A stretch of DNA of 64,000 nucleotides from a virus. The translations under genes were made by a program, and so were the position numbers. The stretch covers positions 427,030-491,029 of IMG/VR virus record IMGVR_UViG_3300034072_000758, one strand, 5' to 3'. Shown one piece after another: positions 7,882 through 41,676 of the stretch; the first letter of the stretch is position 1, and every line of letters starts with the position of its first letter. A model generated the notes under the pieces. That model was given only the letters and a program-made list of their open reading frames with translations, was not told the origin of the DNA and searched no databases.

Positions 7882-9216
7882 TCACACGAACCAGTCGGTT
7901 CCTTCTTTTGTATCCAATAGGGTGACGCCGCGTTCGGCCAAAGCATTCCGAATGATGTCCGCCATGACCCAATCTTTACCGGCTCTTGCCAGATTGCGGT
8001 CGTAGATCAGACCTTCGATGATTTCACGCTCGTCCTTAGACACATTCTTGAACCAATCCTCGTATCGATGATTGAGGACACCAAGCAATTGCGCAGCCGC
8101 AACGAACTCGGACTTGGTTTCCGGCTTCATCAAACTGGATAATTCAGCCAGAGCCAAAGGCGTATTCAGATCATCATGAAGATGATCGAGGAATGATTGT
8201 GGCACCGGAACTTCGTGCGTGGTGAGCTTTGCCGTCTGGCGCAGGAAGGCATAGTAGCCATCCAGCCGGTTCTTCGTGGTTTGAAGAAGTTCTGGGGTCC
8301 AATTCAAGACGGTTCTATAATGCGCTGAGAGCAACGCCAAGCGCACGATTTCCCCATCCCATTCCTTTACGAGATCGTGGACCAACACGACATTCCCTAC
8401 CGACTTGGACATCTTGCCGTTATTGGTCAGGAACTCGTTATGCATCCAGTAGCGGGAATACTCGTGATTATGGCCGCAATGACCTTGAGCACATAACCCC
8501 TGAGAGATTTCATTCTCATGGTGCGGAAAGGCCAAGTCTATACCCCCGCCATGAATGTCGATAGGAAGACCCAGATTGGCTTCAATCATGGCCGAGCACT
8601 CAATGTGCCAACCGGGGCGTCCAGCACCCCACGGACTTTCCCAAGCCGGTTCACCGGGCTTCGACGGTTTCCATAGTACGAAGTCTTTTTGGTCGCGCTT
8701 ATACGACACCTCACCGATCCGGCTTTCGGCTTCGTCATCCGAACCATTGGAGAAAACACCATGATCCGGGTATGAATCCACGTCAAACAAAACGTGACCT
8801 TCCGACACATACGCATGGCCGTTCTTGATCAGACGCACAATCATGTCGATCATGGCCGGGATATGGTTGGTCGCCAGAGGTTCAATGGGAGGCCGTAGGA
8901 CGCCCACGGAGGCCATGTCTTGACGATATATGTCCGTGTAGCGTTCAGCAATAACCTTGTAGTCCACGCCCTCCTGAGAGGCTTTCTGGATGATTTTATC
9001 ATCGATGTCGGTGATGTTCCGAGCATAGATGACATGGTTATTTCCATACTTGTGGCGGAGAACACGAAACAGCAAATCGAATACGACCGCTGGGCGGGCA
9101 TTGCCGATATGTGCGTGATTATATACCGTAGGACCACAGACGTACATCGTAATCCGGTTAGGATTTCGAGGAACGAAAGTTTCTTTGGATCGAGTTTTGC
9201 TGTTGAATATCTTCAT
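7882..9216 (-). CDS. cysS: cysteinyl-tRNA synthetase (class I)
   Basis: HIGH motif (NHAHIGNARP), KMSKS motif (GKMSKSVGN), and a length typical of bacterial CysRS. Start trimmed to MKIFNSK with an AGGA RBS. The upstream in-frame extension to 9255 cannot be excluded. Confidence 0.85.
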   Translation of the reverse strand: MKIFNSKTRSKETFVPRNPNRITMYVCGPTVYNHAHIGNARPAVVFDLLFRVLRHKYGNNHVIYARNITDIDDKIIQKASQEGVDYKVIAERYTDIYRQDMASVGVLRPPIEPLATNHIPAMIDMIVRLIKNGHAYVSEGHVLFDVDSYPDHGVFSNGSDDEAESRIGEVSYKRDQKDFVLWKPSKPGEPAWESPWGAGRPGWHIECSAMIEANLGLPIDIHGGGIDLAFPHHENEISQGLCAQGHCGHNHEYSRYWMHNEFLTNNGKMSKSVGNVVLVHDLVKEWDGEIVRLALLSAHYRTVLNWTPELLQTTKNRLDGYYAFLRQTAKLTTHEVPVPQSFLDHLHDDLNTPLALAELSSLMKPETKSEFVAAAQLLGVLNHRYEDWFKNVSKDEREIIEGLIYDRNLARAGKDWVMADIIRNALAERGVTLLDTKEGTDWFV

Positions 9217-9261
9217 AGATAAATTCCTAACATAACCAATGACTGTTGGCAACACTATGGC

Positions 9262-9289
9262 TTGACAATATTAATTACCATGCTAGACT
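9262..9289 (+). promoter_or_regulatory. sigma70-like promoter TTGACA-N16-TAGACT
   Basis: Seen directly upstream of the gene at 9320, with a GGAG RBS. Confidence 0.5.
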
Positions 9290-9319
9290 AGAATTAGAAA
9301 ATATTGGAGATTAGTTTAC

Positions 9320-9571
9320 ATGATGACCCTCGACATGGCTGAAATGGAATACGATTTGAGTAAGAAAGCCCTGACTTTCTACATGGATCGTGGCGAAGCT
9401 TGGCCAAGCGAAGTCGAAGTGGTATCGCATCATACGGGTCGTGTCATCCGTTTTGTTTACGATTTGGAACTGGCTCAACAAAATGATTTCTGGGACGGCG
9501 AACTGACCGCCTTAAAACCAACCGAAGAATGTAATGTGAAAACCCTCTGGCTGGTGCCGTGTTTCCGATGA
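9320..9571 (+). CDS. hypothetical protein
   Basis: 83-aa ORF downstream of the promoter. Confidence 0.5.
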   Translation: MMTLDMAEMEYDLSKKALTFYMDRGEAWPSEVEVVSHHTGRVIRFVYDLELAQQNDFWDGELTALKPTEECNVKTLWLVPCFR

Positions 9572-9891
9572 CTGATGCCGAATATGAAAAATTAGCTCGC
9601 CGGGTCGCACACCTTATGGGGGACGACGATGCGGCTGCAAAGAGCCTGTGGCGGATGGCTGCGGGCTGTCGAGAACGCGCTGTAGAAGTCGTCCGCGCCT
9701 TCGGACAACATCTTAGTGCCGGTCTGGCCAAAACTTTAATTGAGACCGATAATGATTTCTGCGATTATGTTTGCGCATATGTCATCAACGGTGGTCTTGA
9801 AGTCGAATGGTTGTATTGGAGCCGCGATGAATATGACGCCGATCATGATCTCAAAAGAATAGCCGCGATAGCCAAGAAAGCACTGATATGA
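9559..9891 (+). CDS. hypothetical protein
   Basis: 110-aa ORF overlapping its neighbours by a few nt. Confidence 0.5.
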   Translation: MFPMTDAEYEKLARRVAHLMGDDDAAAKSLWRMAAGCRERAVEVVRAFGQHLSAGLAKTLIETDNDFCDYVCAYVINGGLEVEWLYWSRDEYDADHDLKRIAAIAKKALI

Positions 9892-10184
9892 ATCAGCCAT
9901 TGTACAAAGTAGTAATGCGGGCAGAAGAAATCAAAGATGGCTCAACCGTCACCAAAAAGACGGGTGAAGTTCAGTATACGTTCAAGAACAAATTGTCGCT
10001 GTACCAAACTCAAACCAAAGGGGAACCACCCATTCTTCCGGTCATTATCGAAGGATACTTCCTCGTTGGTGCTAGAGGACAAATCAATCAGATCAAAGGC
10101 GATCTGGAACTGATGATGACCATGACCGCCGAAGAGTTGTTGTGGTTTGCTCAAGAACTTTGTGATGAAGAGGAAGACAAATGA
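9888..10184 (+). CDS. hypothetical protein
   Basis: 98-aa ORF with an ATGA overlap. Confidence 0.5.
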   Translation: MNQPLYKVVMRAEEIKDGSTVTKKTGEVQYTFKNKLSLYQTQTKGEPPILPVIIEGYFLVGARGQINQIKGDLELMMTMTAEELLWFAQELCDEEEDK

Positions 10185-10363
10185 AATTTTGTGTGACGGC
10201 TGAAAACGATCAAGGTCTAACCTTTCAGGTTACATTCCATAATCCCAATTGGAATGGCGCAACGGCTGCTGCGCAGCGCGCCGTAAATAAGGCGGTGAAG
10301 GCCGATCCTTTCCATAAAAAGCATGGACCGTTCTTGGCCAAGAATATCGACGTGACAGCATGA
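10181..10363 (+). CDS. hypothetical protein
   Basis: 60-aa ORF with an ATGA overlap. Confidence 0.4.
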   Translation: MKFCVTAENDQGLTFQVTFHNPNWNGATAAAQRAVNKAVKADPFHKKHGPFLAKNIDVTA

Positions 10364-11130
10364 AGCGAATCAACCCCATAACCAATAGTGCGCAGGATAA
10401 GAGAGATTTTAAGATCAGAACGTTCTCTGATCTTAATCACTATCTCGACACGTTTTTGGGCGGGGAGATTGCGCGTTGTGCGAAGGCTACGGTCTTCTTC
10501 ATGATTAATCGCATGTTGGATCAACCTGCCACCAAACCATTTAAACCCTTCACAATGGGTGATATTTTACGAGTGACCGGGGAAGACATCGATGTCGTGG
10601 TCCCTTCGACAAGCTGGCTTCAAAATCTCGACATTCTTGTGTTTGATCGGTCGATTGGTGACAATGATCCAATCACCCTGAAATATAGCACTCTTTTTAA
10701 AGACTTATATCGAAATAACGATCTGGGCGCTGGGCCGAAACCAGTACCAACCCCACCTATTATCCCCCGGTTGTTGGCGGCAATTGATGGCACGGTTGAC
10801 CACGAGCACAATGTCAGAGAAAAAGAAGATCGGGTATTTACTAAGACAATCCATCGTTTTCTTAATACCAACAGACTTTTTCTTCAATACTCTCTGACCA
10901 AATGTGCCGGTAAAGAAGATAGTCATATATCCAATGATCGCAAACCAATGGTTGTTATTGAATTTATTCATAGCTATGTTGGAATTATAGGACACACTTG
11001 GTTTACGGGCGCGGGCAAAGTATTAGCTCCCGAAACCAATGTTTATTACAAGGTTCGTCCCAAAAAAGGGTCTTCGCTCGAAGAGGCCGAAGAAGAACTT
11101 ATGTTGCTGATGATGGAGGAAAGAATATGA
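10360..11130 (+). CDS. hypothetical protein (256 aa)
   Basis: Long ORF. The antisense ORFs 10620..10871 and 10705..10995 are rejected. Confidence 0.55.
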   Translation: MKRINPITNSAQDKRDFKIRTFSDLNHYLDTFLGGEIARCAKATVFFMINRMLDQPATKPFKPFTMGDILRVTGEDIDVVVPSTSWLQNLDILVFDRSIGDNDPITLKYSTLFKDLYRNNDLGAGPKPVPTPPIIPRLLAAIDGTVDHEHNVREKEDRVFTKTIHRFLNTNRLFLQYSLTKCAGKEDSHISNDRKPMVVIEFIHSYVGIIGHTWFTGAGKVLAPETNVYYKVRPKKGSSLEEAEEELMLLMMEERI

Positions 11131-11291
11131 AAATAGCTATGATTGTCGCGGCTATAGCTTTGTGCTATACCGGCAACAACACGACCAAAGAAACCACCGA
11201 TCTTGAGAACGCGCAATGGGTTCAGGGTCTTATGAATATTTTGACTGCTGTGAAATATGAAACTCCGTCCGTTACGCGATGTGATTCTTGA
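11127..11291 (+). CDS. small putative lipoprotein (MKIAMIVAAIALC lipobox-like signal)
   Basis: ORF 10998..11291 trimmed to the ATG at 11127 with a GGAGGA RBS. Signal peptide ends in ALC. Confidence 0.45.
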   Translation: MKIAMIVAAIALCYTGNNTTKETTDLENAQWVQGLMNILTAVKYETPSVTRCDS

Positions 11292-11955
11292 AGGCTTAGG
11301 TGAGGCTTGGAAATATTATCCAAAGAACCTCGCCTTAAAGAAATGCTTTCAGATCATCGGTGAAATTGAAAGCTCCAAAAAGACGGGGTTCGATGACCTG
11401 TGCCAAGCCATACAATCTTTACCGGATGGCAGCATTAAAATTTCTCGTTGTCTCGACTATTACAAGACCGTAACTTTCGATCTTAACGCAGTAGAAAGCG
11501 GCGAGATCGATTTATATAGAGCTATGGTGGAAGATGACACTTGGCACTCTGTTTTTGATTTACACATGATTAAAAATCACGCCAGTATCATCCCAGCCCC
11601 ATCGGTATCCAGAAAGCTGATTAATTTTGGGTATTGTCTTCATTGTTGTTTGAAGGCTACCACAACAAAATACGCAAGTATGTTATGTCGAGTTATAGAA
11701 GCGCTTTCGAACGAAAATTGGAAGATGTTTACTTACCATTGCCAACATGGCTATAACAACGGCATCCCGGCATCAAGATCAATATTAAGCTGGCTGCGCT
11801 ACGAGTATCAAGTAGGCCAGTATGGTCCCGATTACGATCTCTTAGCCGATGTTATAGCGATAATGGACCGGAACACTTCGTTGGCTATAGATAAATGGTT
11901 CGACCAATGCCTCATTGAGACGCGGGAGAGCGACCATAATGCAAGTGATAAATGA
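11257..11955 (+). CDS. hypothetical Cys-rich protein (232 aa)
   Basis: Long ORF with several CxxC/HC pairs (GYCLHCCLK, YHCQHG). Confidence 0.5.
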   Translation: MKLRPLRDVILEGLGEAWKYYPKNLALKKCFQIIGEIESSKKTGFDDLCQAIQSLPDGSIKISRCLDYYKTVTFDLNAVESGEIDLYRAMVEDDTWHSVFDLHMIKNHASIIPAPSVSRKLINFGYCLHCCLKATTTKYASMLCRVIEALSNENWKMFTYHCQHGYNNGIPASRSILSWLRYEYQVGQYGPDYDLLADVIAIMDRNTSLAIDKWFDQCLIETRESDHNASDK

Positions 11956-12361
11956 TCTCGTACTGCGGCGGCTCTATAAATTCTGGCTTAATAAAGACGG
12001 TGACGGCTTCATCAAAACTGGTTGATATGCTTTTCCGATTGACTGTTCGGAAAAGCATATAAGGATGAATCTTATTACCTTGGTCGATTTCGCGTTTCAA
12101 CTCTGAGCGGATTTTGAGAATTGCGGTCGAATCATATAGATAATCCTGTCGTAACAAGATGCCATTTTCCACGTCAAACCTGAACATTCTCGACATGGCT
12201 TGAACCGGGTCTTTGTGTCCAGCAAACATATTTACCGGGGCAGTCATAGGCTCATCAAACAAATCTTCTAGCTGATCAATAGGCATAATCTTGGCGCTGG
12301 AATATTGTAGCCTGAGATTTGCCATATTGATGTTTAATTTGTACGCGACGTATGAGGTCAT
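11912..12361 (-). CDS. hypothetical protein (contains a perfect 14-bp inverted repeat at 12024-12060 inside the coding region)
   Basis: ORF 11912..12475 trimmed to the Met that forms an ATGA overlap with the upstream gene. Confidence 0.45.
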   Translation of the reverse strand: MTSYVAYKLNINMANLRLQYSSAKIMPIDQLEDLFDEPMTAPVNMFAGHKDPVQAMSRMFRFDVENGILLRQDYLYDSTAILKIRSELKREIDQGNKIHPYMLFRTVNRKSISTSFDEAVTVFIKPEFIEPPQYEIIYHLHYGRSPASQ

Positions 12362-12579
12362 TGATAAGCACCACTGGTAATGGACGCCAGAAGACGCATA
12401 ACGGCCTCTGGATGCGTCTTCATTGCGTCGATGGGGCGAAGATACCCAAGGGCGCGTTTCTCGGTGTACGCCCATTCTTTAGCCCAAGAATCGATGTCGA
12501 AGTTCTTATGTTCGTCATCTTTGTCCGCATTTTCCCAGACCGCACGAGCTTGAGCTATGATTTGTTCAAGGTCAGTCAC
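12358..12579 (-). CDS. hypothetical protein
   Basis: 73-aa ORF coupled to its neighbours. Confidence 0.45.
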   Translation of the reverse strand: MTDLEQIIAQARAVWENADKDDEHKNFDIDSWAKEWAYTEKRALGYLRPIDAMKTHPEAVMRLLASITSGAYQ

Positions 12580-12760
12580 GGAGCACCAATGGGGCTTCCG
12601 ACGCTTGTTCTATGCGATACGCCTTCTCATGCCAGAACTCGAACATTTTAAGATCGTTCTTGGTCAAGGCGTGACGGAGTTCATCTATGTACCCTTGCCT
12701 CAACTCAGGAGGAAGGCTCATAAAATCGGCGACGGTTAATCTGAATGATAATGTGCTCAT
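12572..12760 (-). CDS. hypothetical protein
   Basis: 62-aa ORF, first gene of the minus-strand block. Confidence 0.4.
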   Translation of the reverse strand: MSTLSFRLTVADFMSLPPELRQGYIDELRHALTKNDLKMFEFWHEKAYRIEQASEAPLVLRD

Positions 12761-12804
12761 ATCACGAGCATATCAAAGATAGTTAATAAATGGCAATTTT
12801 AAAA

Positions 12805-12833
12805 TTGATTTATCGAGACCATATTTGATATAT
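12805..12833 (+). promoter_or_regulatory. sigma70-like promoter TTGATT-N17-ATATAT
   Basis: Seen directly in the AT-rich divergent intergenic region. Confidence 0.4.
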
Positions 12834-12840
12834 TTACTAC

Positions 12841-13128
12841 ATGACAACAGATACAGATTTCCGAAAGATCATCGCCGAAGCGTTCAAGAATGCTGACGCC
12901 AAACCAGAATATGAACGCGCCGAATACCTGATCAGGGAATTGACCGGCGTGATTGCTTTGAAGCCGGATTTGGAAAGCTTCAACGACTGTGTTATGGGGA
13001 ATTTCAACATTCGCCTTGTGATGAATAGAGCCGAATGGTATACCCCCGCGTTACGAGTGTCTGAATACATGGCCGCGCTCTTTACCGAGACGGCTAGGAT
13101 TAAAGACGAGTGGGAAAAGTCGGAATAA
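12841..13128 (+). CDS. hypothetical protein
   Basis: 95-aa ORF. Confidence 0.5.
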   Translation: MTTDTDFRKIIAEAFKNADAKPEYERAEYLIRELTGVIALKPDLESFNDCVMGNFNIRLVMNRAEWYTPALRVSEYMAALFTETARIKDEWEKSE

Positions 13129-13166
13129 CTTTTCCACAGGTTTCAGTCCTTATTGTTATATTATGG

Positions 13167-13195
13167 TTGACTTTGATACTAAATAGAATTATAGT
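13167..13195 (+). promoter_or_regulatory. sigma70-like promoter TTGACT-N17-TATAGT upstream of a tRNA trio
   Basis: Seen directly about 25 nt upstream of tRNA-Asn. Confidence 0.5.
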
Positions 13196-13220
13196 CACCA
13201 AATAGACCGTAAGGTCATGT

Positions 13221-13296
13221 TCCTCGGTAGCTCAGTTGGTAGAGCGCCTGACTGTTAATCAGGATGTCACAGGTTCGAGTCCTGTCCGAGGAGCCA
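13221..13296 (+). tRNA. tRNA-Asn (anticodon GUU), CCA encoded
   Basis: Acceptor TCCTCGG/CCGAGGA, anticodon stem CCTGA/TCAGG with loop CTGTTAA, T-arm ACAGG-TTCGAGT-CCTGT, 3' GCCA. Confidence 0.75.
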
Positions 13297-13352
13297 TTAA
13301 AATTCGTGCGTTGTTTACCGCGTTGTAGCGGAGTAATAAATACGCACTATAT

Positions 13353-13424
13353 GGCCGATTAGCTCAGTGGTAGAGCGTCTCGTTTACACCGAGAATGTCG
13401 GGAGTTCGACCCTCTCATCGGCTA
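13353..13424 (+). tRNA. tRNA-Val (anticodon UAC)
   Basis: Acceptor GGCCGAT/ATCGGCT, anticodon stem TCTCG/CGAGA with loop TTTACAC, T-arm GGGAG-TTCGACC-CTCTC. Confidence 0.7.
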
Positions 13425-13448
13425 CCCATCCTTCGGATGGTTTTCTTT
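13425..13448 (+). terminator. rho-independent terminator (CCATCC-TTCG-GGATGG + TTTTCTTT)
   Basis: UUCG tetraloop hairpin plus T-run. Confidence 0.6.
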
Positions 13449-13509
13449 ATATAAAAATAATTTTGCGGTTGCGAAATTATAAATAATGTATTAAGATGTC
13501 CTTAGATAT

Positions 13510-13581
13510 GCGGGTGTAACTCAGCGGTAGAGTGTCAGCCTTCCAAGCTGTTCGTCGCAGGTTCGATCCCTGTCACCCGCT
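13510..13581 (+). tRNA. tRNA-Gly (anticodon UCC)
   Basis: Acceptor GCGGGTG/CACCCGC, D-arm ACTC-AGCGGTA-GAGT, anticodon loop CTTCCAA, T-arm GCAGG-TTCGATC-CCTGT. Confidence 0.7.
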
Positions 13582-13600
13582 CTCTACAAAGGACATCAAG

Positions 13601-15491: not shown

Positions 15492-16319
15492 ATGGCCTTC
15501 TTGAATTTAGATTTACGTCCAGTATCCAAGAAAATCGACTCCTTCGTCAGTTACGTTGATAAGCGTGTTGACGAAATGGATTTATATACTCAGACCATGT
15601 TGTTCTGTGAACTGAGTTGCTTGGCGTACTTCTCTCATAACGAGGTTCAGGATTGGGCCAAAAAATTAAATTTCCTGTCAGTAGTCGCTATCGAGAATGA
15701 TGGTGGGTTGGCATATCTGTTCGAAACGGAAACCGATCTGATCTTGTCGTTCCGTGGGAGTGATAATGCTCAGAATCGTAAAACCAACTTCGACCTCGAT
15801 CTAGTGAAGGATGGAGCTTTAGCCGGTAAAGTTCACCACGGTTTCTTGAAGCTGGCAGACAAGATGATCAACAGCTTTGTAACGCTGCTGGATGCTAATA
15901 ATTGTGAAAAGAAGGTTTGGGTAACAGGACATTCTCTGGGAGGCGCAATAGCTGCGATCATGGCCGTGAAAGCCGAGCGTCGAGTCGGACCTAATGTTGA
16001 TGGTATCGTGACTTTCGGCCAACCTAAGATAGGCAATCATGCCTATATCAAGGGAATTACTACCCCGTATTATCGTTGGGTAAACCACGAAGACATCGTA
16101 TCGAAGCTTCCGATGTGGTTACCTCATTTTGGTTCATTAAAATATCTTAACAACAAAGGTGATCTGAGCATTCAGACTTTTATTTCCACTTTGTTTATAT
16201 TCCCTTCTACCCAATCGATAGAAGATCATGACATCGTGAAATATCGCGCTGTTCTGGAAAAACAAAAGGGGAAGGAACTTAATCCCTCCCCTATGACATT
16301 CTTCAAACTTATTAAGTAA
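15492..16319 (+). CDS. class-3 (fungal-type) lipase / alpha-beta hydrolase
   Basis: GHSLGG nucleophile elbow (VWVTGHSLGGAIAAIMA), 275 aa, with downstream His/Asp candidates. Confidence 0.7.
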   Translation: MAFLNLDLRPVSKKIDSFVSYVDKRVDEMDLYTQTMLFCELSCLAYFSHNEVQDWAKKLNFLSVVAIENDGGLAYLFETETDLILSFRGSDNAQNRKTNFDLDLVKDGALAGKVHHGFLKLADKMINSFVTLLDANNCEKKVWVTGHSLGGAIAAIMAVKAERRVGPNVDGIVTFGQPKIGNHAYIKGITTPYYRWVNHEDIVSKLPMWLPHFGSLKYLNNKGDLSIQTFISTLFIFPSTQSIEDHDIVKYRAVLEKQKGKELNPSPMTFFKLIK

Positions 16320-16982
16320 TTAGAACGAAGCAGTCAGCGACAGGACGGTATGGTCCGGTTCGATTTGGGTGTTGGTGTCATGGTAACGAACGTCAACCGA
16401 CAGGCGGTCATTCAGCTTGTACGAGACACCGATGTTGCCAGTGTTGTAGGACGACTGCTGGAACGATTGTTCTCCGAGCGCGCCCGAAACAGTCAGACGA
16501 TTTGTCAACGGGTACGAAGCATTGACCTCATAGTAGAAAGCCTTGCCAGTCTCACCGAAGAACTGTGGCGAGTAATAAACGGCTGCGCCGACATTGGCCT
16601 TACCAACCGGACGCGAAACGCCAGCCTTGATTTCGCCATAAGCGTAATCGGAACCCTTCGGCTGATCAGGATAGCCGGTGTAAATCACGGCGAAATCGAA
16701 TGTGTATTCCTTGTAGGAAGGGCGGACACCCGCATACAGATTGATTTCAGCATCCGTGCTGTTATTGAAATCCACGTTGGACGCAAAAGCGCCGACATAT
16801 ACAGTGTTGTCGAAGGTGTGTTCGACACGGGCTTGAACAGCTTCATGTTGATCGGTTTGGCTGACACCACGATCCACATAATCCGAGGCGACGGTTACTG
16901 CGTAATTGGTGTCACCAGCCGAAGCCGTTGCCGCCGATACTAAACCGAGAGCGGCGATTGTTGCTGCGATAAGCACTTTCAT
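16320..16982 (-). CDS. outer-membrane beta-barrel protein (OmpA-like/porin-family) with signal peptide
   Basis: Signal peptide MKVLIAATIAALGLVSAATASA. Alternating aromatic/hydrophilic beta-strand pattern. C-terminal ...LTASF. Confidence 0.65.
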   Translation of the reverse strand: MKVLIAATIAALGLVSAATASAGDTNYAVTVASDYVDRGVSQTDQHEAVQARVEHTFDNTVYVGAFASNVDFNNSTDAEINLYAGVRPSYKEYTFDFAVIYTGYPDQPKGSDYAYGEIKAGVSRPVGKANVGAAVYYSPQFFGETGKAFYYEVNASYPLTNRLTVSGALGEQSFQQSSYNTGNIGVSYKLNDRLSVDVRYHDTNTQIEPDHTVLSLTASF

Positions 16983-17078
16983 TTTGTTTTTACCTCATGT
17001 ATTCTGAAAGGAAGCGGAATATACATGATTGGTAAAATGTATGTCAAAATATTTTTTAAATTACGGAAATAAATTAAA

Positions 17079-17107
17079 TTGACGAAATCGTAAAAAAATC
17101 TTAAGAT
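17079..17107 (+). promoter_or_regulatory. sigma70-like promoter TTGACG-N17-TAAGAT
   Basis: Seen directly in the AT-rich intergenic region. Confidence 0.4.
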
Positions 17108-17976: not shown

Positions 17977-18003
17977 CGTCATTCACTAGAAGGATCACAA
18001 AAT

Positions 18004-31325: not shown

Positions 31326-32681
31326 ATGCCTCCATTTTTATGGATTGTAATCCCGGTAGCGGTTGTTGCCTTCTTGGTCATCACCGCGATCCTGTTGTCG
31401 TTCGCATGGCGCGTTGTCGTTGATACGAACAAGGTCCACATCGTTCAGTCTCGCAAAAAGACAACCAGCTACGGCGTCGGCGCTGAACACGGTAACGTCT
31501 ATTACCGCGTCCCATCATTCATCCCGGTTTGGGGTGTTACAACCATCGAGCTTCCAGTCAGCAACTTTGATCTGTCTCTGAACAGCTATAAAGCATATGA
31601 CAAAGACCGCGTTCCGTTCGAACTCGACATTACCGCGTTCATGCGTATCGCTGACACCAATACCGCCGCAGCGCGCGTTTCCAGCTTCACCGACTTGAAG
31701 ACCCAACTCCAATCGGTCGTACAAGGCGCTGTTCGTAAAATTCTGTCGTCCTATGACATCAACACTGTTATGGGTGATCGCTCGACTTTCGGTCAACAAT
31801 TCACTGACGAAGTAAAAGCCGAACTCGCCAATTGGGGCGTTGAGCCGGTTAAGAACCTCGAACTGATGGACATCCGTGACTCGGACGGCTCTAAGGTAAT
31901 CGCTAACATCATGGCGAAGAAGACCTCGTTCATCGAAATGGAATCCCGCGTCGAAGTCGCCAAGAACCAGCAAGCCGCTAAGGAAGCTGAAATCGCTGCC
32001 GGTCAAGCCGTTCTCATTCGTGAGCAAGAAGCCCAACAACAAGTTGGTGAACGTACTGCGCAGCAAGAGCGCGCTACGGGTATCGCCAAAGAAAAGTCTC
32101 GCCAAGACATACAGCAAGAAGCCGCTATCACCAAAGAGCGCGAAATGGAAGTTCTTTCGGTTGAAACCCAGCGTAATGCTGAAATCACCAAAAAGGCTCA
32201 AGTCGTTCTGGCTGAACAGCAACGCGATACTGACGTTATTAAAGCTGAGGCTCAAAAGAAGACCACAGTTCTGATCTCCGAAGGTAATCTCCAAGAAGCT
32301 AAGCTCACCGCCGAAGGTATCAAGGCAAAGGGTGAGGCCGAAGCTGCTGCGAAGCAAGCGATGGAAACCGCTCCGGTTCAAGCTCAAATCCTGCTGGCGC
32401 AGGAAATTGGTGAAAACCAAGGCTACCAAAAGTACCTTATCGATCTGCGTGAGGTAGAAGCCTCTCAGGTGGTTGGTGTGGCTCAGGCCGCTGCCCTCCA
32501 AAAGGCTGAGATCAAGATCATCGCCAACAACGACACTGCTTCTAAGGGTCTGAACTCGGTCGGTGAACTGTTCTCGTCCACGGGCGGCACAAAGCTCGGT
32601 GCTATGGTCGAAGGCTTCGCTCAGACCGAAGAAGGCCGCAAGCTGATCGACAAGTTTATCGGTAAGGGCGGCGCTGCTTAA
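31326..32681 (+). CDS. SPFH/band-7 (flotillin/YqiK-like) membrane protein
   Basis: N-terminal TM helix. Band-7 core (VHIVQSRKK...GVTTIELPV...). Long Ala/Gln/Glu-rich coiled-coil tail. Confidence 0.7.
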   Translation: MPPFLWIVIPVAVVAFLVITAILLSFAWRVVVDTNKVHIVQSRKKTTSYGVGAEHGNVYYRVPSFIPVWGVTTIELPVSNFDLSLNSYKAYDKDRVPFELDITAFMRIADTNTAAARVSSFTDLKTQLQSVVQGAVRKILSSYDINTVMGDRSTFGQQFTDEVKAELANWGVEPVKNLELMDIRDSDGSKVIANIMAKKTSFIEMESRVEVAKNQQAAKEAEIAAGQAVLIREQEAQQQVGERTAQQERATGIAKEKSRQDIQQEAAITKEREMEVLSVETQRNAEITKKAQVVLAEQQRDTDVIKAEAQKKTTVLISEGNLQEAKLTAEGIKAKGEAEAAAKQAMETAPVQAQILLAQEIGENQGYQKYLIDLREVEASQVVGVAQAAALQKAEIKIIANNDTASKGLNSVGELFSSTGGTKLGAMVEGFAQTEEGRKLIDKFIGKGGAA

Positions 32682-34486: not shown

Positions 34487-34815
34487 TCGTCATGAACCAA
34501 TATTTCTTTCTGGGGCCGAACGCGATCATTCATAACTTCTATGATCCAGAAATCCAAACGGCGGCTCAGATGTCTCGCGGCATGGCCATCGAACTCGGTG
34601 AAGTTCCCCCGGCCTACAGCGAAGACCCGATCATTGTCACGCCTGATGCGTATATCGCTAAGAACGAGTTCGACCGCGATGACTTGTTCTTCGGCGATAC
34701 TAACTTCGTCCCCGAATATCTTCTGTGGGAAGGTGGCGACGGTAAGACTTACGTGGTTCACATCAAGGACTGCTATCGAGCCACCGACATGGTTTGTATG
34801 GGTCTTCTGAATTAG
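34483..34815 (+). CDS. hypothetical protein
   Basis: 110-aa ORF. Confidence 0.5.
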   Translation: MIVMNQYFFLGPNAIIHNFYDPEIQTAAQMSRGMAIELGEVPPAYSEDPIIVTPDAYIAKNEFDRDDLFFGDTNFVPEYLLWEGGDGKTYVVHIKDCYRATDMVCMGLLN

Positions 34816-35867
34816 AAGTCGGCCTTCGGCTTCAATACCTGTGACAAATTCTGACGCTGTTTGATTTCATATCCATCACGGAACGTAGTCATCTTGTCGT
34901 TCGACAGGTAGTCTTTCAGGATGCGGTGCGCAGCTTCCCACTCGTATTCGCGGTACGCCACTTCCTTGATCTTCCAAGCGCTGCTAACGCGCTGGAACAG
35001 GGTTGATGGCATGTAGTCGGTACGCAGGAAGAAATCGCCTTCCTGAGCCACGTCTGGGAACGCATGACCAGAACCAATCAGTTGAGCACCATTAGGCGGA
35101 ATGCCATCACCCGCAAAAATCCAAGGGTTCTGTAAACCATCCTCAGAACCGGGGATGTAGTAGAACTGCTGGGTTTCGAAGTTTCTACGAATGAAATTCG
35201 CCTTGGCGTTCTCAACGACTTGTTCGTTGATCTCGAACTCCTTAGTCGCGGTGGATAGAATGTCTCCCAGAGTGTCGGATGTATCCAACCCAAATGGATC
35301 GGTGGCCTGTTTATCCAAAATATCTTGGTATTCCTGAGAGGCCGTCATGGGCTTCACTTGGATACGCCATATGTGAGGATACCAAGTAGACGAATAACCA
35401 TCAGCGGCCTTGTCGGCTTCCTTCACGACATAAAACTTGTTGGCTGGCTTCGCGGTCGGTGAGGTGTTATCGCGGCGGTGTGGAAGCTCTATAACGTCCC
35501 CGGCGATGATACGACGACCAAGACGGGCGATCAGATCATTTAGATGGAACTCAATAAACAGCGTATCGGACTCAAACATCATCCCGAACTGAGACAAACT
35601 GAAATCCGTCTCGTCGTTGATTTGATAGATACCGCGTGTCTCATACACGGTATCCGAATATTTTCTATCGCGGTTTTCCAAGTATAACGGGTCTTGAATA
35701 CTGGTAATATTCGTGACGGTTGAGTTAGACGTTTGGTCGTACACACCTTCATATAGGTGAACATATACCGCAGTACCAGACACCGTGAAAAATTCCGAGA
35801 TCACCCTATCGGAGAACTTGAAATCGTTTCCTTTTTTACCACTATTCCAGAGAGTTATACGAGCCAT
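34812..35867 (-). CDS. hypothetical protein (351 aa, probably structural)
   Basis: Long ORF. The antisense ORFs are rejected. Confidence 0.5.
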   Translation of the reverse strand: MARITLWNSGKKGNDFKFSDRVISEFFTVSGTAVYVHLYEGVYDQTSNSTVTNITSIQDPLYLENRDRKYSDTVYETRGIYQINDETDFSLSQFGMMFESDTLFIEFHLNDLIARLGRRIIAGDVIELPHRRDNTSPTAKPANKFYVVKEADKAADGYSSTWYPHIWRIQVKPMTASQEYQDILDKQATDPFGLDTSDTLGDILSTATKEFEINEQVVENAKANFIRRNFETQQFYYIPGSEDGLQNPWIFAGDGIPPNGAQLIGSGHAFPDVAQEGDFFLRTDYMPSTLFQRVSSAWKIKEVAYREYEWEAAHRILKDYLSNDKMTTFRDGYEIKQRQNLSQVLKPKADF

Positions 35868-35899
35868 ATTTGTATTTATATTGAAGAAAACCCCCGAAC

Positions 35900-36316
35900 G
35901 TGTTATCTAAATATAGCATTGTTCGGAGACTGGCGCTCGTGCCAAAGGTTTATCAAAATTTGTCTGGCACGACAAAAGACTCTTTTAAGATCGGCAAGAA
36001 CGGTCCTGAAATCATTCGTGGATACGGAGAGCCAGAGGTCGAAGCTACAAATGGTAGTCTATACGTCGATCAAACCGATGGTGAACTTTATCAATATAAA
36101 AAAGACGAATGGGTTCTCCTGTCCAAGGACTACGCGAGCTTCCATTATCTGTCCCTGTTGGCCCAGCACGAGACGATCCAGCACATAGCCACTCTCATGT
36201 GTCAGGCAAAAGAAAAGAGCCAATTCCCGTGGAAAGTGACTCTTACTTTATTCGGACTATTTGCCGCGTTTGCGATCCCCGGCGTGATCCTTATCTGGTT
36301 ATTCTTTCCCGACTAA
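35900..36316 (+). CDS. fiber-associated protein sharing a conserved N-terminal domain (VYQNLSGTTKDSFKIGKNGPEIIRG) with the gene at 55502..55963
   Basis: Paralogous N-terminus seen by eye. The start may be an internal GTG. Confidence 0.45.
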   Translation: MLSKYSIVRRLALVPKVYQNLSGTTKDSFKIGKNGPEIIRGYGEPEVEATNGSLYVDQTDGELYQYKKDEWVLLSKDYASFHYLSLLAQHETIQHIATLMCQAKEKSQFPWKVTLTLFGLFAAFAIPGVILIWLFFPD

Positions 36317-37576
36317 CCATTCACCCGGAAGATCATAATTGTCGATGATCTTCTTGTTCATGTCGCCATACAGGCTGATCGACGGCTTGCGATTGATCAG
36401 ATCATTGTGGAACGCCTGAACCTGTTCGCGGGACGTGCGTTCAGCTTCTTCGAGGATTCCGCCCACGTTATCGTAGCTTCGGCCTTCATCGAACATGTCG
36501 GCCAGAACGAATTGCATCAGTTCGCCGTATTCTTCATCGACCTTGGAAATTTCCACAAGGGCCTTATTCTTCGCCAGCGTCCAGTCGGCATCGGTGATAC
36601 CGTTTTCGGCGATGGTGCGCAGCGTTTTACCGATGGCGATAAAGCATTTCTTGAGGTTCTTTTTCGTCGTTTCGAACGCGATGACAAAGAGTTCCGTATC
36701 GTTGGAATAGTGGGCGCTGACATGGTAGCACAGACCCAACTTCTCGCGTACTTCAACGAACAGAGGCGACGACATGCCACCAGACAGAACATCGGTGAGA
36801 AGATAGGACAGAACGCGCTCGTCACGCTTTACCGGAAAGGCGATGCGACCCTTAACCGAACCCTTCGGGGGAGACGGAATAACGACTGTGCCACCCACGT
36901 ATTCCGCCTTTTCAGTCGGAACCTTTTGGCCTTGAGGCAGCTTCATGACGTGGCTGGCTTTCACCTTTTTCACGAACTCGTCATGATCGACATTACCACC
37001 ACAGAACACGATCATGTTCTGGGTGAAATAGTTGGCCTTGTGATAGACCGCCAGATCGTCTTCGACGTTGATATTTGTGATGGTTTCTTCCGTGCCGAGC
37101 GTTTCGCGGCCCAGAGCGCTGCCGGGATATGCCGCCGCTTTCAGGCCGTTGTAGACCATCTTGCCGCCATTGGTTTGGGTCATGGCGAACTCTTGGAGGA
37201 TGACATCGCGTTCCTTCTCGATTTTGTTGAAAGCGATGTTGGTCACCATGTCGGTGAGAAGGTCGAGCGAATTATCCACAAACTTACCGAGACCTTCCAC
37301 GAAATAAACCGTGTGGCGGGCCGAGGTGTACGCATTGAAGGACGAGCCGAGCGATTCGATTTCGGATGAAATAGCGAACGAATCTTCCCGGTTGGAAGTA
37401 CCGTTAAACATCATGTGTTCGAGGAAGTGAGCGGTGCCTTGCTTTACGTCATTTTCATCACTGGAACCAGCGTTGACGGCGACCGCAACAAGCGAAGAGT
37501 GAGTTTGCCTTTGAGCGGTGATGACCGTTAGGCCATTGTCGAGGACGGTGGTTCTGATGTTTGTGTAAAATGACAT
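36299..37576 (-). CDS. M16-family zinc metallopeptidase (pitrilysin/insulinase-like)
   Basis: Inverted zinc motif HFLEHMMF (HxxEH) near the N-terminus. 425 aa. Confidence 0.7.
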   Translation of the reverse strand: MSFYTNIRTTVLDNGLTVITAQRQTHSSLVAVAVNAGSSDENDVKQGTAHFLEHMMFNGTSNREDSFAISSEIESLGSSFNAYTSARHTVYFVEGLGKFVDNSLDLLTDMVTNIAFNKIEKERDVILQEFAMTQTNGGKMVYNGLKAAAYPGSALGRETLGTEETITNINVEDDLAVYHKANYFTQNMIVFCGGNVDHDEFVKKVKASHVMKLPQGQKVPTEKAEYVGGTVVIPSPPKGSVKGRIAFPVKRDERVLSYLLTDVLSGGMSSPLFVEVREKLGLCYHVSAHYSNDTELFVIAFETTKKNLKKCFIAIGKTLRTIAENGITDADWTLAKNKALVEISKVDEEYGELMQFVLADMFDEGRSYDNVGGILEEAERTSREQVQAFHNDLINRKPSISLYGDMNKKIIDNYDLPGEWLVGKE

Positions 37577-37709
37577 ATTCGCTCCATGTAACTAAATCAA
37601 CGCATATACTATCATAAAAATCTTTCAAGTCAACATTTTATATTTGCTTATCCACATCCAATGATGATAGAAAAATATGGTTAATTTTGTGTAAAGGATT
37701 ATCCGCGTA

Positions 37710-38240
37710 ATGGGTACTCGTCATTTGGTGGTTGTTCGCTTGAACAATGAAGTAAAAGTCGCTCAGTATGGTCAATTCGACGGTTATATGAGCGGGGCTG
37801 GTAGAACAATACAACGTATTTTGTCGTTTGCTGATTTGAATTTGCTAAAAGAGTTAGTAGCAAAATGTTGGTGGATCACAGATGATGAACACAACAAGAT
37901 GATGGCTGATCTTGGTGTCAAAAGTAATGACGGTTGGATTAGCTTGGATGACAGTAAAAAAATTGAAAAAGCTTATCCGCATCTTCATCGCAATTGTAGC
38001 GCCGAAGTCATCACTGAAATTCTCAACAGCGAAAACGGATTACCGCTTCAAAATTCATACGATTTTGGAGAAGATGGACTTTTTTGCGAATACACCTATA
38101 CGGTCGATCTCGACAATGATACATTGACCGCACAAAGCGGGGGTTTGGACGGCAAAGTCCTTTTCCAAGGACCAATCAACACGCTCCACACAATCCCACC
38201 ATTTGAAGACCCCAAAGACGAAGAAGAAGACGAAGAATGA
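37710..38240 (+). CDS. hypothetical protein with acidic C-terminus ([10 protein letters not shown])
   Basis: 176-aa ORF with an ATGA overlap with aspS. Confidence 0.5.
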
Positions 38241-40018
38241 CCAAGACAAACATGCGAACGCAAACCTGTGGTGAATTGACCGTGGCCTATACTGGCGACA
38301 CGGTGAGCCTGTGTGGCTGGATTCACCGCAAGCGAGATCATGGCGGCTTGCTGTTCATCGACTTACGTGACAATTACGGACTGACCCAGATCGTAATGCA
38401 AAAGACCGCTGCCTGTTTCTCGGTGGTGGAGCACCTTCGCCAAGAAAGCGTAATTCGCGTAATCGGTAAGGTCGTAACGAGAACGGAAAATACACAAAAC
38501 CCGAACCTCGCAACCGGGCAGATCGAAGTCATCGCTTCGGAAATTACAGTTCTGTCGGAAGCCTCGGAACTTCCAGTGCCAGTGTTCGGTGATGTTCAGT
38601 ATCCAGAAGACCAACGTTTGAAGCATCGCTATCTCGATCTTCGCCGTGACGAACTCCACTCAAACATCCTGCTGCGCTCCAAGATCATTAGCTACCTGCG
38701 TAGGTTCATGGAGGGCGAAGGCTTTACTGAGTTTCAGACGCCTATTCTGACCGCATCTTCCCCAGAAGGCGCGCGCGACTTCCTCATTCCATCACGCCTT
38801 CATCCCGGCAAATTTTATGCCCTGCCTCAAGCACCACAACAATTCAAGCAACTTTTGATGGTGTCTGGCTTTGACCGCTATTTCCAGATCGCACCTTGCT
38901 TCCGCGACGAAGCCGCCCGTGCTGACCGGTCGCCGGGTGAGTTCTATCAACTCGATATTGAAATGTCTTTCGTCAATCAGGAAGACGTTTTCTCTCAGGC
39001 TGAACGTATCCTTCATTCGACCTTTACTGAGTTCTCGAACGGGAAGACCGTAAGTTCGTACCCATTCCAGCGAATCACCTACAAGGACTCGATGGAAAAA
39101 TACGGCAACGATAAGCCCGATCTTCGTAACCCAATCGTCATGAGCGATGCTTCGCTTTATTTCGTGAACGGCGGCTTCGGTCTGTTTGAGAAAATGGCCA
39201 GCGACGGCAAAAGCTCGATCTGGGCTATTCCGGTCAAGGGCAATGGAAACATCAATCGCAAATTCTGCGACAAGATGAACTCTTGGGCCATCGAAGAAGG
39301 CCAAAAAGGTATGGGATATATCTATTGGAACGAAGAAGGCGCACAAGGCCCAATCGCCAAGAATCTCCATGCCGATAAGCTGGGACAATTGGAAGCCGCC
39401 TATGAATTGGGTAACGGTGATGCCATATTCTTCGTGGCCGGGATCAAAAAGGATTTCCTCAAGTTCTGCGGATTCGCCCGCACCAAGATCGCCGAAGAAC
39501 TCGGTCTGATCAAGGATGATCATTTCCATTTCTGCTGGGTGGTGGATTTCCCAATGTTCGAACTATCGAACGAAGGCAAAATCGATTTCGCCCACAATCC
39601 GTTCTCTATGCCACAAGGCGAAATGGAAGCTCTGGAAACCAAGAACCCGCTGGATATTCTGGCCTATCAGTACGACATCGTGTGTAACGGCATCGAACTG
39701 TCCTCCGGGGCTATTCGTAACCACCGACCCGACATCATGCTCAAGGCTTTTGAAATCGCTGGTTACAAGGCCGAGGAAGTGGAAGAACGCTTCGGCGGTA
39801 TGTTGAACGCATTCCGCTATGGCGCGCCTCCCCACGGTGGTCTGGCTCCCGGTGTTGACCGCATGGTCATGATGCTGGCTAATAAATCCTCCATCCGAGA
39901 CATCATCGCTTTCCCGCTGAATCAGCAAGGACAAGATTTGATGATGAACGCACCATCGGAAGTCACGGATAAACAACTCAAAGAGTTGAACATCCGAACA
40001 TACAAGCCATTGAGCTAA
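38237..40018 (+). CDS. aspS: aspartyl-tRNA synthetase (class II, bacterial-type)
   Basis: N-terminal OB anticodon-binding fold. Class II motif 2 (FRDE...R...F.Q.D.E) and motif 3 ([14 protein letters not shown]). 593 aa. Confidence 0.85.
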
Positions 40019-40025
40019 TCTTGGA

Positions 40026-40047
40026 GGGTCGCTTGAAAAAGCGGCCC
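40026..40047 (+). terminator. rho-independent terminator after aspS
   Basis: GGGTCGC-ttgaaaaa-GCGGCCC followed by TTTCT. Confidence 0.55.
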
Positions 40048-40053
40048 TTTCTA

Positions 40054-40081
40054 TTGACATACTAAGAAGATATGATATGTT
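40054..40081 (+). promoter_or_regulatory. sigma70-like promoter TTGACA-N16-TATGTT
   Basis: Seen directly. Confidence 0.5.
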
Positions 40082-40119
40082 GTTAGTAAGACAACATTAT
40101 ATTATTAGGAGATTTACAT

Positions 40120-40449
40120 ATGACTGACCGCGAAGCGAATGCCCTGAAAATCATTCAACACAAGATTGATCAATTCGTTCTAATTCTTGAAGCTGCTAAT
40201 CGCCAAATGATCGCGGCTATGTCGGAAAAAACTGGTCACATGCCGGAAATCTTAGTCTACGAAATCAAGAAAGCCAATGACTACATTCTCTACGGCGAGG
40301 AAGTCGTTAAGTGGTTCAATGACGGCAAGACCAAGGAAGAGGTCTTGGCGATGATCAACCAATTCTTCATCGACTACCATATGGGCTGGTCGAACAAGCC
40401 GAAGGAATGCTGTGAAGTGATGGCGGCTATCGCTTGCGCCATCAAGTAA
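40120..40449 (+). CDS. hypothetical protein
   Basis: 109-aa ORF with RBS TAGGAGA. Confidence 0.5.
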   Translation: MTDREANALKIIQHKIDQFVLILEAANRQMIAAMSEKTGHMPEILVYEIKKANDYILYGEEVVKWFNDGKTKEEVLAMINQFFIDYHMGWSNKPKECCEVMAAIACAIK

Positions 40450-41676
40450 TTACAGCCACACTTTCCCATATGCTGATTGAAGAATAGACGGGATGAACAC
40501 TTTACCACCTTCGTCCTGATAGTTTTCCAGAACAGCCAACAAAGTTCTACCAACCGCCAGTCCAGACCCATTTAAGGTGTGGACTGGTTCTTTTTTGCCT
40601 TGAGCATTGGTGAAGCGAGTCTTCATGCGATTGGCTTGGAAATCGCCACAATTGGATACCGAGCTAATCTCACGATAAGTTTTCTGTGATGGCACCCAAA
40701 CTTCGATGTCGTAAGTCTTTTGTGCTCCGAAGCCCATGTCACCCGCGCATAATAACATGATGCGATATTTTATACCCAATGAAGTGAGGATGTTTTCAGC
40801 ACAAGATAACATGAACTCGTGCTCTTGTGCCGACTTCTCAGGCGTAGTGATCGACACCATTTCAACTTTGTTAAATTGATGCTGGCGTAAGATGCCATGC
40901 GTGTCCTTACCAGCGCTTCCGGCTTCGGATCGGAAACATGGGGTCAGCGCAGTTAGACGAAGGGGTAATTCACCCTCAGCCAAAATCTTATCAGCGACAT
41001 AATTTGTCAAAGTCACTTCGGCGGTCGGGATCAGAAAATGTTCATCAGTGTTCACCGAGTACAGGTCATCGATGAATTTAGGAAGCTGACCAGTTCCATA
41101 CAAGGCCGTGTCTTTCACCAGCAACGGAGTGGAGCATTCCTCGAATCCATTTTTAACCTGACATTCAAGCATATACTGCCCGATAACTCGTTCGAGACGT
41201 GCCACGGGGCCGCGCATGAATGAGAAGCGTGTGCCAGACATCGCTACCCCCGCTGATATATCGAGGCCGTATTTGCTCCCGATCTCAACATGGTCTTTCG
41301 GGTCTTTTATGGAACGGAGCGGAATATCATTGACACGAACCAATTGATTGTCGTGCTCGTCTTTTCCAACCGGAACGTCATTGGCTGGGACATTTGGGAT
41401 GTCGAACAAATAGTCTTCAAGTTCCCCGGCCAGATAATCGACCAAGCCTTCGGCAGTAGTTATTTCGGCCTTCACCGCCACCCCGGTTTCATGGTCTTTA
41501 TTCCGCGCGGCATCCTTGCGCTTGGCGTACAAAGCCTCAAGATCAGTCAACGATTTACGATGATCTGTATCCTTTTTGAGAATGTCCGAAACTATCCGAG
41601 ACCCGTCAAGCCCTCTCTTATTCAACCCGCTGGCAACGGCTTCTGGATTCTCGCGGATGGTCTTTATATTGATCAT
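40450..41676 (-). CDS. serS: seryl-tRNA synthetase (class II)
   Basis: N-terminal coiled-coil tRNA-binding arm. Motif 2 (FRSEAGSAGKDTHGILRQHQFNKVE). Motif 3 (GSGLAVGRTLLAVLENYQ). 408 aa. Confidence 0.85.
   Translation of the reverse strand: MINIKTIRENPEAVASGLNKRGLDGSRIVSDILKKDTDHRKSLTDLEALYAKRKDAARNKDHETGVAVKAEITTAEGLVDYLAGELEDYLFDIPNVPANDVPVGKDEHDNQLVRVNDIPLRSIKDPKDHVEIGSKYGLDISAGVAMSGTRFSFMRGPVARLERVIGQYMLECQVKNGFEECSTPLLVKDTALYGTGQLPKFIDDLYSVNTDEHFLIPTAEVTLTNYVADKILAEGELPLRLTALTPCFRSEAGSAGKDTHGILRQHQFNKVEMVSITTPEKSAQEHEFMLSCAENILTSLGIKYRIMLLCAGDMGFGAQKTYDIEVWVPSQKTYREISSVSNCGDFQANRMKTRFTNAQGKKEPVHTLNGSGLAVGRTLLAVLENYQDEGGKVFIPSILQSAYGKVWL

Follow-up and report, generated by a model that had tools for sequence, protein, structure and literature searches.

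Huge bacteriophages that carry up to 15 aminoacyl-tRNA synthetases (aaRS) have already been published (Al-Shayeb et al. 2020, Nature; PMC7162821), and no aaRS complement is conserved among jumbo phages (Iyer et al. 2021, PMC7824862). Here we analysed a 64,000 nucleotide stretch of viral DNA (positions 427,030 to 491,029 of IMG/VR virus record IMGVR_UViG_3300034072_000758; hereafter the window, numbered from its first base) that encodes a cysteinyl- (CysRS), an aspartyl- (AspRS) and a seryl-tRNA synthetase (SerRS). We consider it probable that these three genes were captured in ancient times from Caulobacterales-like bacteria and have been kept as working synthetases within a phage translation-support module. 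The trio is a further example of a phenomenon already described, and the assertion in a preliminary description of the window that aaRS genes are a hallmark of a few jumbo phages and giant viruses agrees with the published genomes of very large phages, of which they are characteristic (PMC7162821). Like the huge phages of that study, the source phage has a genome of more than 200 kb, many tRNAs, and aaRS that are related to but distinct from host enzymes. It differs from them in having three aaRS in the 82 kb examined (the window plus overlapping flanking contigs, out of ~517 kb), and its Cys/Asp/Ser set, its island between structural genes and its Caulobacterales affinity are likewise specific to its lineage.

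The closest cultured backbone relatives, judged by UvsX, are Agrobacterium phage Atu_ph07 (490 kb) and Sinorhizobium phage Phosso (PV764938, 469 kb); the window UvsX is 53-55% identical to their proteins and to those of Vibrio phage 2.275.O and the GAP32/CBB group. Phosso also carries an annotated CysRS beside an odd tRNA, a SerRS-like gene, an RNA ligase and a peptidyl-tRNA hydrolase. However, its CysRS is 44-45% identical to that of the window and lies outside the group formed by the window and Caulobacterales enzymes, indicating a separate acquisition, and its "SerRS" is a core-only protein of 250 aa. A Phosso tRNA with the amber-reading anticodon CTA (L003:8016-8091), given as undetermined in GenBank, is found between the CysRS gene and that of the core-only "SerRS" (L003:8423-9175). 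Phage-collection searches gave no AspRS or full-length SerRS match in Phosso or Atu_ph07. Among cultured phages of Caulobacterales hosts, Brevundimonas phages vB_BpoS-Papperlapapp and Marchewka (~350 kb) resemble the window phage in that a seryl-tRNA synthetase is annotated in them and their tRNAs number at least 24, but they are siphophages of 65.5% GC whose SerRS is 43% identical to that of the window, which points to independent capture; no CysRS or AspRS match was obtained for either in the same type of search. Phage CysRS-like and SerRS-like proteins are also already catalogued, because the window CysRS and SerRS match phrog_30090 (E=9.5e-93) and phrog_16140 (E=3.4e-130), two families labelled "unknown function" that come without lineage or context information. 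Beyond phages, the aaRS set of Mimivirus includes a CysRS. The Mimiviridae are comparable as large DNA viruses with tRNAs, several aaRS and a codon usage unlike that of the host (related work, PMC12872441), but their virus realm and host domain are unrelated, making the likeness one of convergence and not of homology of the system.

The source of the window is a T4-like jumbo myophage of ~517 kb that is kin to Atu_ph07 and Phosso. One JGI contig of 516,805 bp carries the exact sequences of all three aaRS proteins, as do Logan contigs of run SRR10854512. Independent assemblies of the window sequence, three Logan contigs and the JGI contig, overlap exactly. Phage genes flank each aaRS gene on both sides, and the window encodes a gp32-type single-stranded DNA-binding protein, UvsX, a 1,773-aa virion protein, a collagen-repeat tail fibre, the large subunit of ribonucleotide reductase, a virion structural protein and a gp13-like head-tail adaptor. 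A megablast comparison of 8 kb of the window with 50,697 phage records returned no nucleotide match, and scans of IMG/VR with AspRS and with an alignment of the virion structural protein (orf351) gave no match. The possibility that host DNA was mis-assembled into a phage contig, or that the contig is bacterial, draws some force from the many GenBank "phage" records matching these aaRS that are short, unannotated contigs. It is countered by the exact agreement of the three Logan contigs with the JGI contig, by the phage genes on both sides, by an aaRS gene GC content of 48-51% against ~67% in candidate hosts (67% in Brevundimonas pondensis, a candidate host type; PMC10070969), by an identity of at most 69% to any cellular protein, and by the synteny of the island described below in a second phage contig, so that the probability of such an artefact is practically negligible. 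Records from Listeria, Staphylococcus, Enterococcus, Ralstonia YO and "Bacteriophage sp." were discarded as aaRS precedents, being short, unannotated or surrounded by bacterial neighbours. The AspRS of Microcystis phage MaAM05 (L004, MW495066.1 224922-232658) was likewise set aside, as its flanks (sasA, coaE and sigE, an ECF sigma factor) look bacterial. Phage-collection matches to housekeeping genes need such checks of context.

CysRS (444 aa; 7882-9216, minus strand) is encoded within the first of two tRNA clusters. Its open frame spans 7882-9255 and a GTG at 9255 would add 13 residues, but we placed the start at the ATG at 9216 because homologues and the JGI gene call begin there. The protein matches the Pfam domain tRNA-synt_1e (3.7e-111), scores 454.5 bits against the NCBIfam equivalog cysS TIGR00435 (cut-off 340) over profile positions 1-464 of 466, and aligns with E. 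coli CysRS (1LI5; E=6e-107). Equivalents of the E. coli zinc ligands C28, C209, H234 and E238 are retained in YVCG, GWHIECS and HHENE, and KMSKS is intact. Approximately 14-16 residues of the helical bundle are deleted in CysRS and in its closest relative, P0242, with the C-terminal anticodon-binding domain aligning throughout; no DALR_2 or CysS_C Pfam match was recorded, whereas cellular relatives have these domains. AspRS (593 aa; 38237-40018, plus strand) is of the bacterial type, with an OB-fold tRNA_anti-codon domain, a GAD domain and the class II D/K/N core tRNA-synt_2 (1.6e-112), and it matches the NCBIfam equivalog aspS NF001750 end to end (821.8 bits, cut-off 443). Alignment to the Pseudomonas aeruginosa (4WJ3) and E. 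coli (1EQR) enzymes showed that FRDE and motif 3 are kept. SerRS (408 aa; 40450-41676, minus strand) combines the class II G/H/P/S/T core tRNA-synt_2b (2.2e-43) with Seryl_tRNA_N (1.7e-10), matches the NCBIfam equivalog serS TIGR00414 end to end (443.3 bits, cut-off 301.65) and has intact motifs 2 and 3 (FRSEAG and GSGLAVGRT). The tip of its N-terminal coiled-coil arm is 14 residues shorter than in all cellular relatives, and the orthologue on a second phage contig, L002, is 10 residues shorter in the same place.

By these alignments and profile matches all three enzymes are full-length and possess all catalytic motifs. The extents and completeness given for them in the preliminary description stand, as do motifs 2 and 3 of AspRS and the KMSKS of CysRS; the "HIGH" attributed to CysRS in fact reads HIGN. 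This form of the nucleotide-binding motif is found in all Caulobacterales relatives and in Phosso. Similarly, AspRS reads QAPQ and HNPF where gammaproteobacterial enzymes have QSPQ and HHPF, and both variants are present in every Caulobacterales relative. HIGN, QAPQ and HNPF are thus traits of the lineage and not lesions.

A homologue search covering 5.8 billion proteins placed all three enzymes nearest to the Caulobacterales. The best named matches of AspRS were from Phenylobacterium, Caulobacter, Brevundimonas and Asticcacaulis (65.5-68.6% identity), those of CysRS from Caulobacterales with Asticcacaulis first (54-59%), and those of SerRS from Caulobacter and relatives, with Sphingomonadales close behind (53.6-56.9%). 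The cellular sequences are far closer to each other, with median identities of 83% (AspRS), 67% (CysRS) and 70% (SerRS). In neighbour-joining trees each window enzyme grouped with proteins from phage-like contigs: AspRS with P0002 (71% identity), SerRS with P0125 (55%), and CysRS with P0242 (75%), P0243 (65%) and P0244 (62%). The bootstrap values for these groupings in the three aaRS trees were 141, 192 and 188 of 200, and the replicates that kept these small, long-branched clades apart from the cellular cluster numbered 200, 200 and 123 of 200. The aaRS phylogeny that had been proposed as a check therefore gives Caulobacterales as the nearest cellular lineage, but with the window enzymes in long-branch clades alongside phage-like-contig proteins. 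P0002 and P0125 share one 10.8-kb contig (L002), and P0244 (locus L006) derives from the same assembly as L002.

The P0243 locus (L005; GCA_043956695.1, contig JBINOA010003469.1, 868514-889887 of 1,136,180 bp) encodes its CysRS, 65% identical to that of the window, among phage-type genes for a baseplate/virion-like protein, a phage NMNAT, a nuclease and an NMN transporter; a Gcw_chp/porin-like beta-barrel gene is also nearby. The largest known phage genome at the time of Al-Shayeb et al. 2020 was 735 kb (PMC7162821), and this 1.14-Mb contig could be a concatemer, a mis-assembly or a phage-like element larger than that. In P0243 (L005:10001-11374) and P0244 (L006:1944-3332) the KMSKS motif is degenerate, reading KIAKS and RMGKS, respectively, and some CysRS copies of this phage-like clade may have a relaxed or altered function.

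Composition and substitution patterns bear on the age of the genes. The three aaRS genes have 48-51% GC and a third-position GC content (GC3) of 0.51-0.60, within the 0.35-0.65 range of the other phage genes, and their proteins show FYMINK residues raised by 6-7 points and GARP residues lowered by 6-8 points relative to cellular orthologues. Compared with the orthologues in L002, L005 and L006, dN was 0.21-0.40 and dS was ~1.8-2.1 (LWL85) or not computable, that is, saturated, with silent changes in more than half of the codons for identical residues. On the evidence of the phage-like GC3, the FYMINK/GARP shift, the low dN at saturated dS and the gene order shared between phage contigs, cysS, aspS and serS are old resident phage genes under purifying selection and not recent host fragments. 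Frameshifts, missing catalytic residues and a recent, inactive host origin, the outcomes named beforehand as contradicting functional synthetases, are all excluded by the alignments, GC3 and dN/dS.

AspRS and SerRS share a location. Both lie in a 7.7-kb segment (35868-43592) that also holds small open reading frames and an M16 (insulinase-type) zinc peptidase (36299-37576, minus strand; Peptidase_M16 2e-36, M16_C 7e-28, HFLEH active-site motif) and that sits between two divergent structural genes. On the left is orf351 (34812-35867, minus strand), encoding a virion structural protein (phrog_11591, E=5.5e-85) that is 75% identical to its L002 orthologue; on the right is a T4 gp13-like head-tail adaptor gene (43593-44348, plus strand; PF26809 Phage_T4_gp13, and the connector family phrog_211 at E=2.5e-31). 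The M16-AspRS-SerRS gene order is common to the window and L002, which share five syntenic genes; the M16 peptidase, for which no PHROG family match was found, is 45% identical to its L002 orthologue and adjoins AspRS in both phages. The absence of cellular homologues made orf351 a suitable probe, and it retrieved eight related metagenome loci (43-61% identity), including one on a contig of 425 kb and one on a contig of 435 kb. In the six of the eight loci with enough flanking sequence the two boundary structural genes were only 75-3,746 nt apart, and no aaRS, M16 or NadE match was present in the sequence available around any of the eight. Since the boundary genes are nearly adjacent in relatives and aaRS and M16 genes were not found in the flanks of the relatives' loci, the M16-AspRS-SerRS segment is best read as an accessory island, specific to the lineage, that was inserted into a conserved junction of structural genes. 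CysRS is placed separately, inside tRNA cluster 1.

The window contains 25 standard tRNAs on which ARAGORN and Rfam agree. Cluster 1 (55-13582, plus strand) has 11 of these (Pro x2, Thr x2, Gln, Val x2, Ala x2, Asn and Gly) and cluster 2 (50385-52377, minus strand) has 14 (Trp, Lys x4, Leu x5 and Arg x4) plus two atypical genes. The earlier count of at least 27 was right in pointing to a large set, but its other two members are probably the atypical genes, tRNA-like sequences with inserts that are called only when introns are allowed. Cluster 1 begins at base 55 and could be followed upstream on Logan contig L007, whose 4,083-base overlap with the window is exact; another 11 tRNAs (Phe x2, Ile x2, Met x2, Gln, Asn, Pro and Asp x2) occupy the 2.7 kb that precede the window. 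Ten kb past the right edge there were no further tRNAs. In total 36 standard tRNAs for 15 amino acids were identified in the 82 kb, where tRNA-Cys, -Ser, -Glu, -His and -Tyr were not found. The statement that the window has no tRNA-Cys, tRNA-Asp or tRNA-Ser is correct as it stands, but for Asp it reflects the position of the window edge, as two tRNA-Asp(GTC), both with G73, are encoded 1.6-2.1 kb upstream together with a second tRNA-Asn(GTT). Relaxed ARAGORN settings returned extra tRNA calls within coding regions; one of them, a "tRNA-Ser(tga)" at 46528-46614, was dismissed as a false positive because Rfam gave no tRNA signal there even at E<=10. The first atypical gene of cluster 2 (52175-52292, minus strand; 118 nt, fold z = -4.75) has a D-arm like that of tRNA-Leu, A73, an anticodon-loop region readable as UUA and a very long extra arm with a stem of at least 7 bp, with no relatives in the phage collection; a role as a working ochre suppressor is unlikely, TAA ending 22 of 28 genes. 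The second (51965-52072, minus strand), which folds poorly, may be a decayed tRNA.

The upstream tRNAs give AspRS potential partners of two kinds. In the indirect pathway, a non-discriminating AspRS is followed by GatCAB, with U1-A72 on tRNA-Asn (PMC4206432, PMC9976931). Both phage tRNA-Asn have U1-A72, G73 and a GUU anticodon, and the tRNA-Asn(GTT) inside the window (13221-13296, plus strand) is a plausible candidate substrate of AspRS by this route. The best PDB match of AspRS is the P. aeruginosa Asp/Asn ligase 4WJ3, several close relatives are named "Aspartate--tRNA(Asp/Asn) ligase" in UniRef, and the anticodon-binding domain reads DHGG as in the L002 enzyme, all Caulobacterales relatives and 4WJ3, where E. 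coli has DLGS; at a second position in this domain there is Asn where E. coli has Lys. This second position and the His of DHGG are the positions reported to govern acceptance of tRNA-Asn. AspRS is thus probably non-discriminating. We found no paper stating that Caulobacter is without AsnRS.

Other translation genes are close by. An archaeal/eukaryotic-type peptidyl-tRNA hydrolase (PTH2) is encoded at L007:2185-2712, ~6.5 kb before window base 1, and genes for ribosomal protein S21 and a sigma-70-family factor are found at L008:1-1270, just past window base 64000; all three add to a set of genes for translation and takeover. We propose that the phage lineage took cysS, aspS and serS from Caulobacterales-like bacteria long ago, AspRS and SerRS arriving as part of the 7.7-kb island, and retained them as working genes whose products would act as ordinary aminoacyl-tRNA synthetases in the infected cell. 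Together with at least 36 tRNAs, PTH2 and S21 they would form a translation-support module that matches tRNA charging to the demand of a 46% GC phage proteome in a ~67% GC host. AspRS would charge the two phage tRNA-Asp upstream of the window and, being probably non-discriminating, would also load Asp on the two phage tRNA-Asn, after which host GatCAB would convert Asp to Asn; CysRS and SerRS would use host tRNA-Cys and tRNA-Ser, or phage copies in the other ~435 kb. Codon demand is a plausible reason to carry AspRS and SerRS: in 28 phage genes Asp and Asn make up 12.4% of codons, and Asn, Ser, Lys and Ile are more frequent in the phage proteome than in the host-type orthologues of the three synthetases.

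Several points weigh against this proposal. The comparison of demand (Asn 6.1% and Ser 7.3% in the 28 phage genes, 3.1% and 4.2% in the set of aaRS orthologues from cells) lets those orthologues stand in, as a crude proxy, for the proteome of a host that is itself inferred. The 82 kb contain no tRNA-Cys or tRNA-Ser for CysRS and SerRS to act on, and the non-discriminating character of AspRS is deduced from one signature residue and the annotation of relatives. The shortened SerRS arm and CysRS helical bundle could signify an altered tRNA specificity. As for the trees, that of AspRS is without other alphaproteobacterial orders, long-branch attraction could inflate both the monophyly and the basal position of the phage clades, and there were no phage hallmark genes in locus L006, the source of CysRS P0244.

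The same gene set allows a different purpose, in which the aaRS mainly make up for host counterparts lost to shut-down, degradation or inhibition during infection, for example through toxins or abortive-infection systems acting on aaRS or tRNAs, and raising charging capacity is not their primary service. A theme of translation protection can be read from several tRNA-Lys genes of divergent structure, together with PTH2 and an RlaP-type RNA-repair nucleotidyltransferase, all encoded in the same genome. However, this analysis identified no defence system aimed at CysRS, AspRS or SerRS, and the enzymes are ordinary host-type proteins without obvious resistance-conferring changes; as the principal role such back-up or counter-defence is unlikely, and it is not exclusive of the translation-support role. 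It is very improbable that at least one of the enzymes is kept for moonlighting, for example in signalling by dinucleotide polyphosphates (Ap4A), in the synthesis of cysteine persulfide (CysRS) or in passing an aminoacyl group to an acceptor other than tRNA. Such a use would fit the trimming of tRNA-contacting parts (the CysRS helical bundle and the SerRS arm), the degenerate KMSKS motifs within the CysRS clade and the core-only class II protein that Phosso carries under the annotation "serine-tRNA synthetase". The retention of the anticodon-binding domains (the AspRS OB fold and the CysRS C-terminal domain) and of all aminoacylation motifs, the full-length equivalog scores and the placement among tRNA and other translation genes argue for aminoacylation instead.

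Cluster 2 also contains two Lys tRNAs with a long variable arm, on which SerRS had been suggested to act. One has the anticodon CUU (50813-50903, minus strand; 91 nt, CCA encoded, Rfam tRNA 52.1 bits) and the other UUU (51417-51501, minus strand; 85 nt, 49.3 bits). Both have U73 and fold as a cloverleaf plus extra arm, in the case of 50813-50903 as the minimum free energy fold, and both match phage tRNAs annotated as tRNA-Lys with 77-81% identity over their full length. In the phage collection the family comprises 23 Caulobacter phage records (phiCbK group), eight from Brevundimonas phages and two labelled "uncultured"; it is also seen at L009:1501-1682 and L010:1501-1587. All members have U73, a class-II-type D-arm, a length of 85-91 nt and 3 nt between the acceptor and D stems, and the 3-4 bp stem of the extra arm covaries across family phages (GUC:GAC, AGC:GCU, AGGC:GCCU and GAC:GUC). 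We considered whether these tRNAs are copies of a host tRNA, which was not borne out: the D-arm and anticodon-loop signature was found in only two of 185,579 species genomes, neither of them from Caulobacterales. The family appears to be phage-specific, and one possible purpose is the evasion of nucleases that target tRNA-Lys. A tRNA-Lys(CUU) of normal length (51517-51593, minus strand), which also has U73, has exactly the acceptor stem and T arm of the long-arm CUU tRNA, the pattern expected if an exchange of the D, anticodon-stem and variable regions had turned one of the two into the other.

In the suggested pairing, a phage SerRS with a shortened arm would charge these Lys-anticodon tRNAs with serine, either to recode Lys codons or for a non-translational use. 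Serine identity is set by the variable arm and not by the anticodon (PMC9976931), the arm tip is deleted in both phage SerRS orthologues, and the long-arm tRNAs have G1-C72, G2-C71 and a genuine covarying extra arm in addition to being absent from host genomes under the signature tested. By the published identity rules, however, U73 in place of G73 speaks against serine identity, as does a 3-4 bp extra-arm stem resembling that of bacterial tRNA-Tyr (PMC9976931); that review cites Himeno et al. 1990 (its reference 158) for conversion of tRNA-Tyr to tRNA-Ser specificity in vitro. Serine at Lys codons, 5.6% of the total, would harm the phage's own proteins, and recognition by LysRS through the anticodon is the simpler expectation. 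The change from tyrosine to serine specificity reportedly needs both a longer arm and G73. Furthermore, none of the Caulobacter phage records gave a SerRS match, so the long-arm family exists without a phage SerRS. With U73, a 3-bp arm stem and a family present in Caulobacter phage records that gave no SerRS match, serylation of these tRNAs is extremely improbable. The somewhat wider claim that SerRS co-evolved with these class-II-shaped CUU and UUU tRNAs, which would be serine-charged or at least not lysine-charged, is highly improbable too; if true, the SerRS and long-arm tRNA pair would constitute a private decoding or non-translational aminoacyl-tRNA pathway.

The long-arm family does bear on the host. 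Because the aaRS trees point to Caulobacterales and the family is otherwise found only in Caulobacter and Brevundimonas phages and the two uncultured records, the host is most likely a member of the Caulobacterales.

The glutamine-dependent NAD+ synthetase NadE reported for the window was recovered as a 585-aa protein (29034-30791, plus strand) with CN_hydrolase and NAD_synthase domains and a match to phrog_36784 "NAD synthetase" (E=4e-143). Accessory genes in three further regions (15492-19337, 31326-32681 and 49672-50073) include those for a class 3 lipase, a Gcw_chp/porin-like beta-barrel protein, a GH19 chitinase-like protein (possibly an endolysin), a DNA-ligase-domain protein, an SPFH/Band 7 protein and an ion-channel (Ion_trans) protein.

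These findings do not overturn current understanding of aaRS in huge phages; they offer evidence tying an uncultivated 517-kb phage to the Caulobacterales and provide a well-resolved example in which three host-lineage synthetases appear to have been long retained under selection, in identifiable accessory slots of a conserved phage backbone. The convergent trimming of tRNA-contacting parts in the phage SerRS and CysRS is of specialist interest. If AspRS, as is probable, serves both Asp and Asn decoding with the phage tRNA-Asp and tRNA-Asn, the virus would both depend on and feed the GatCAB pathway of its host.

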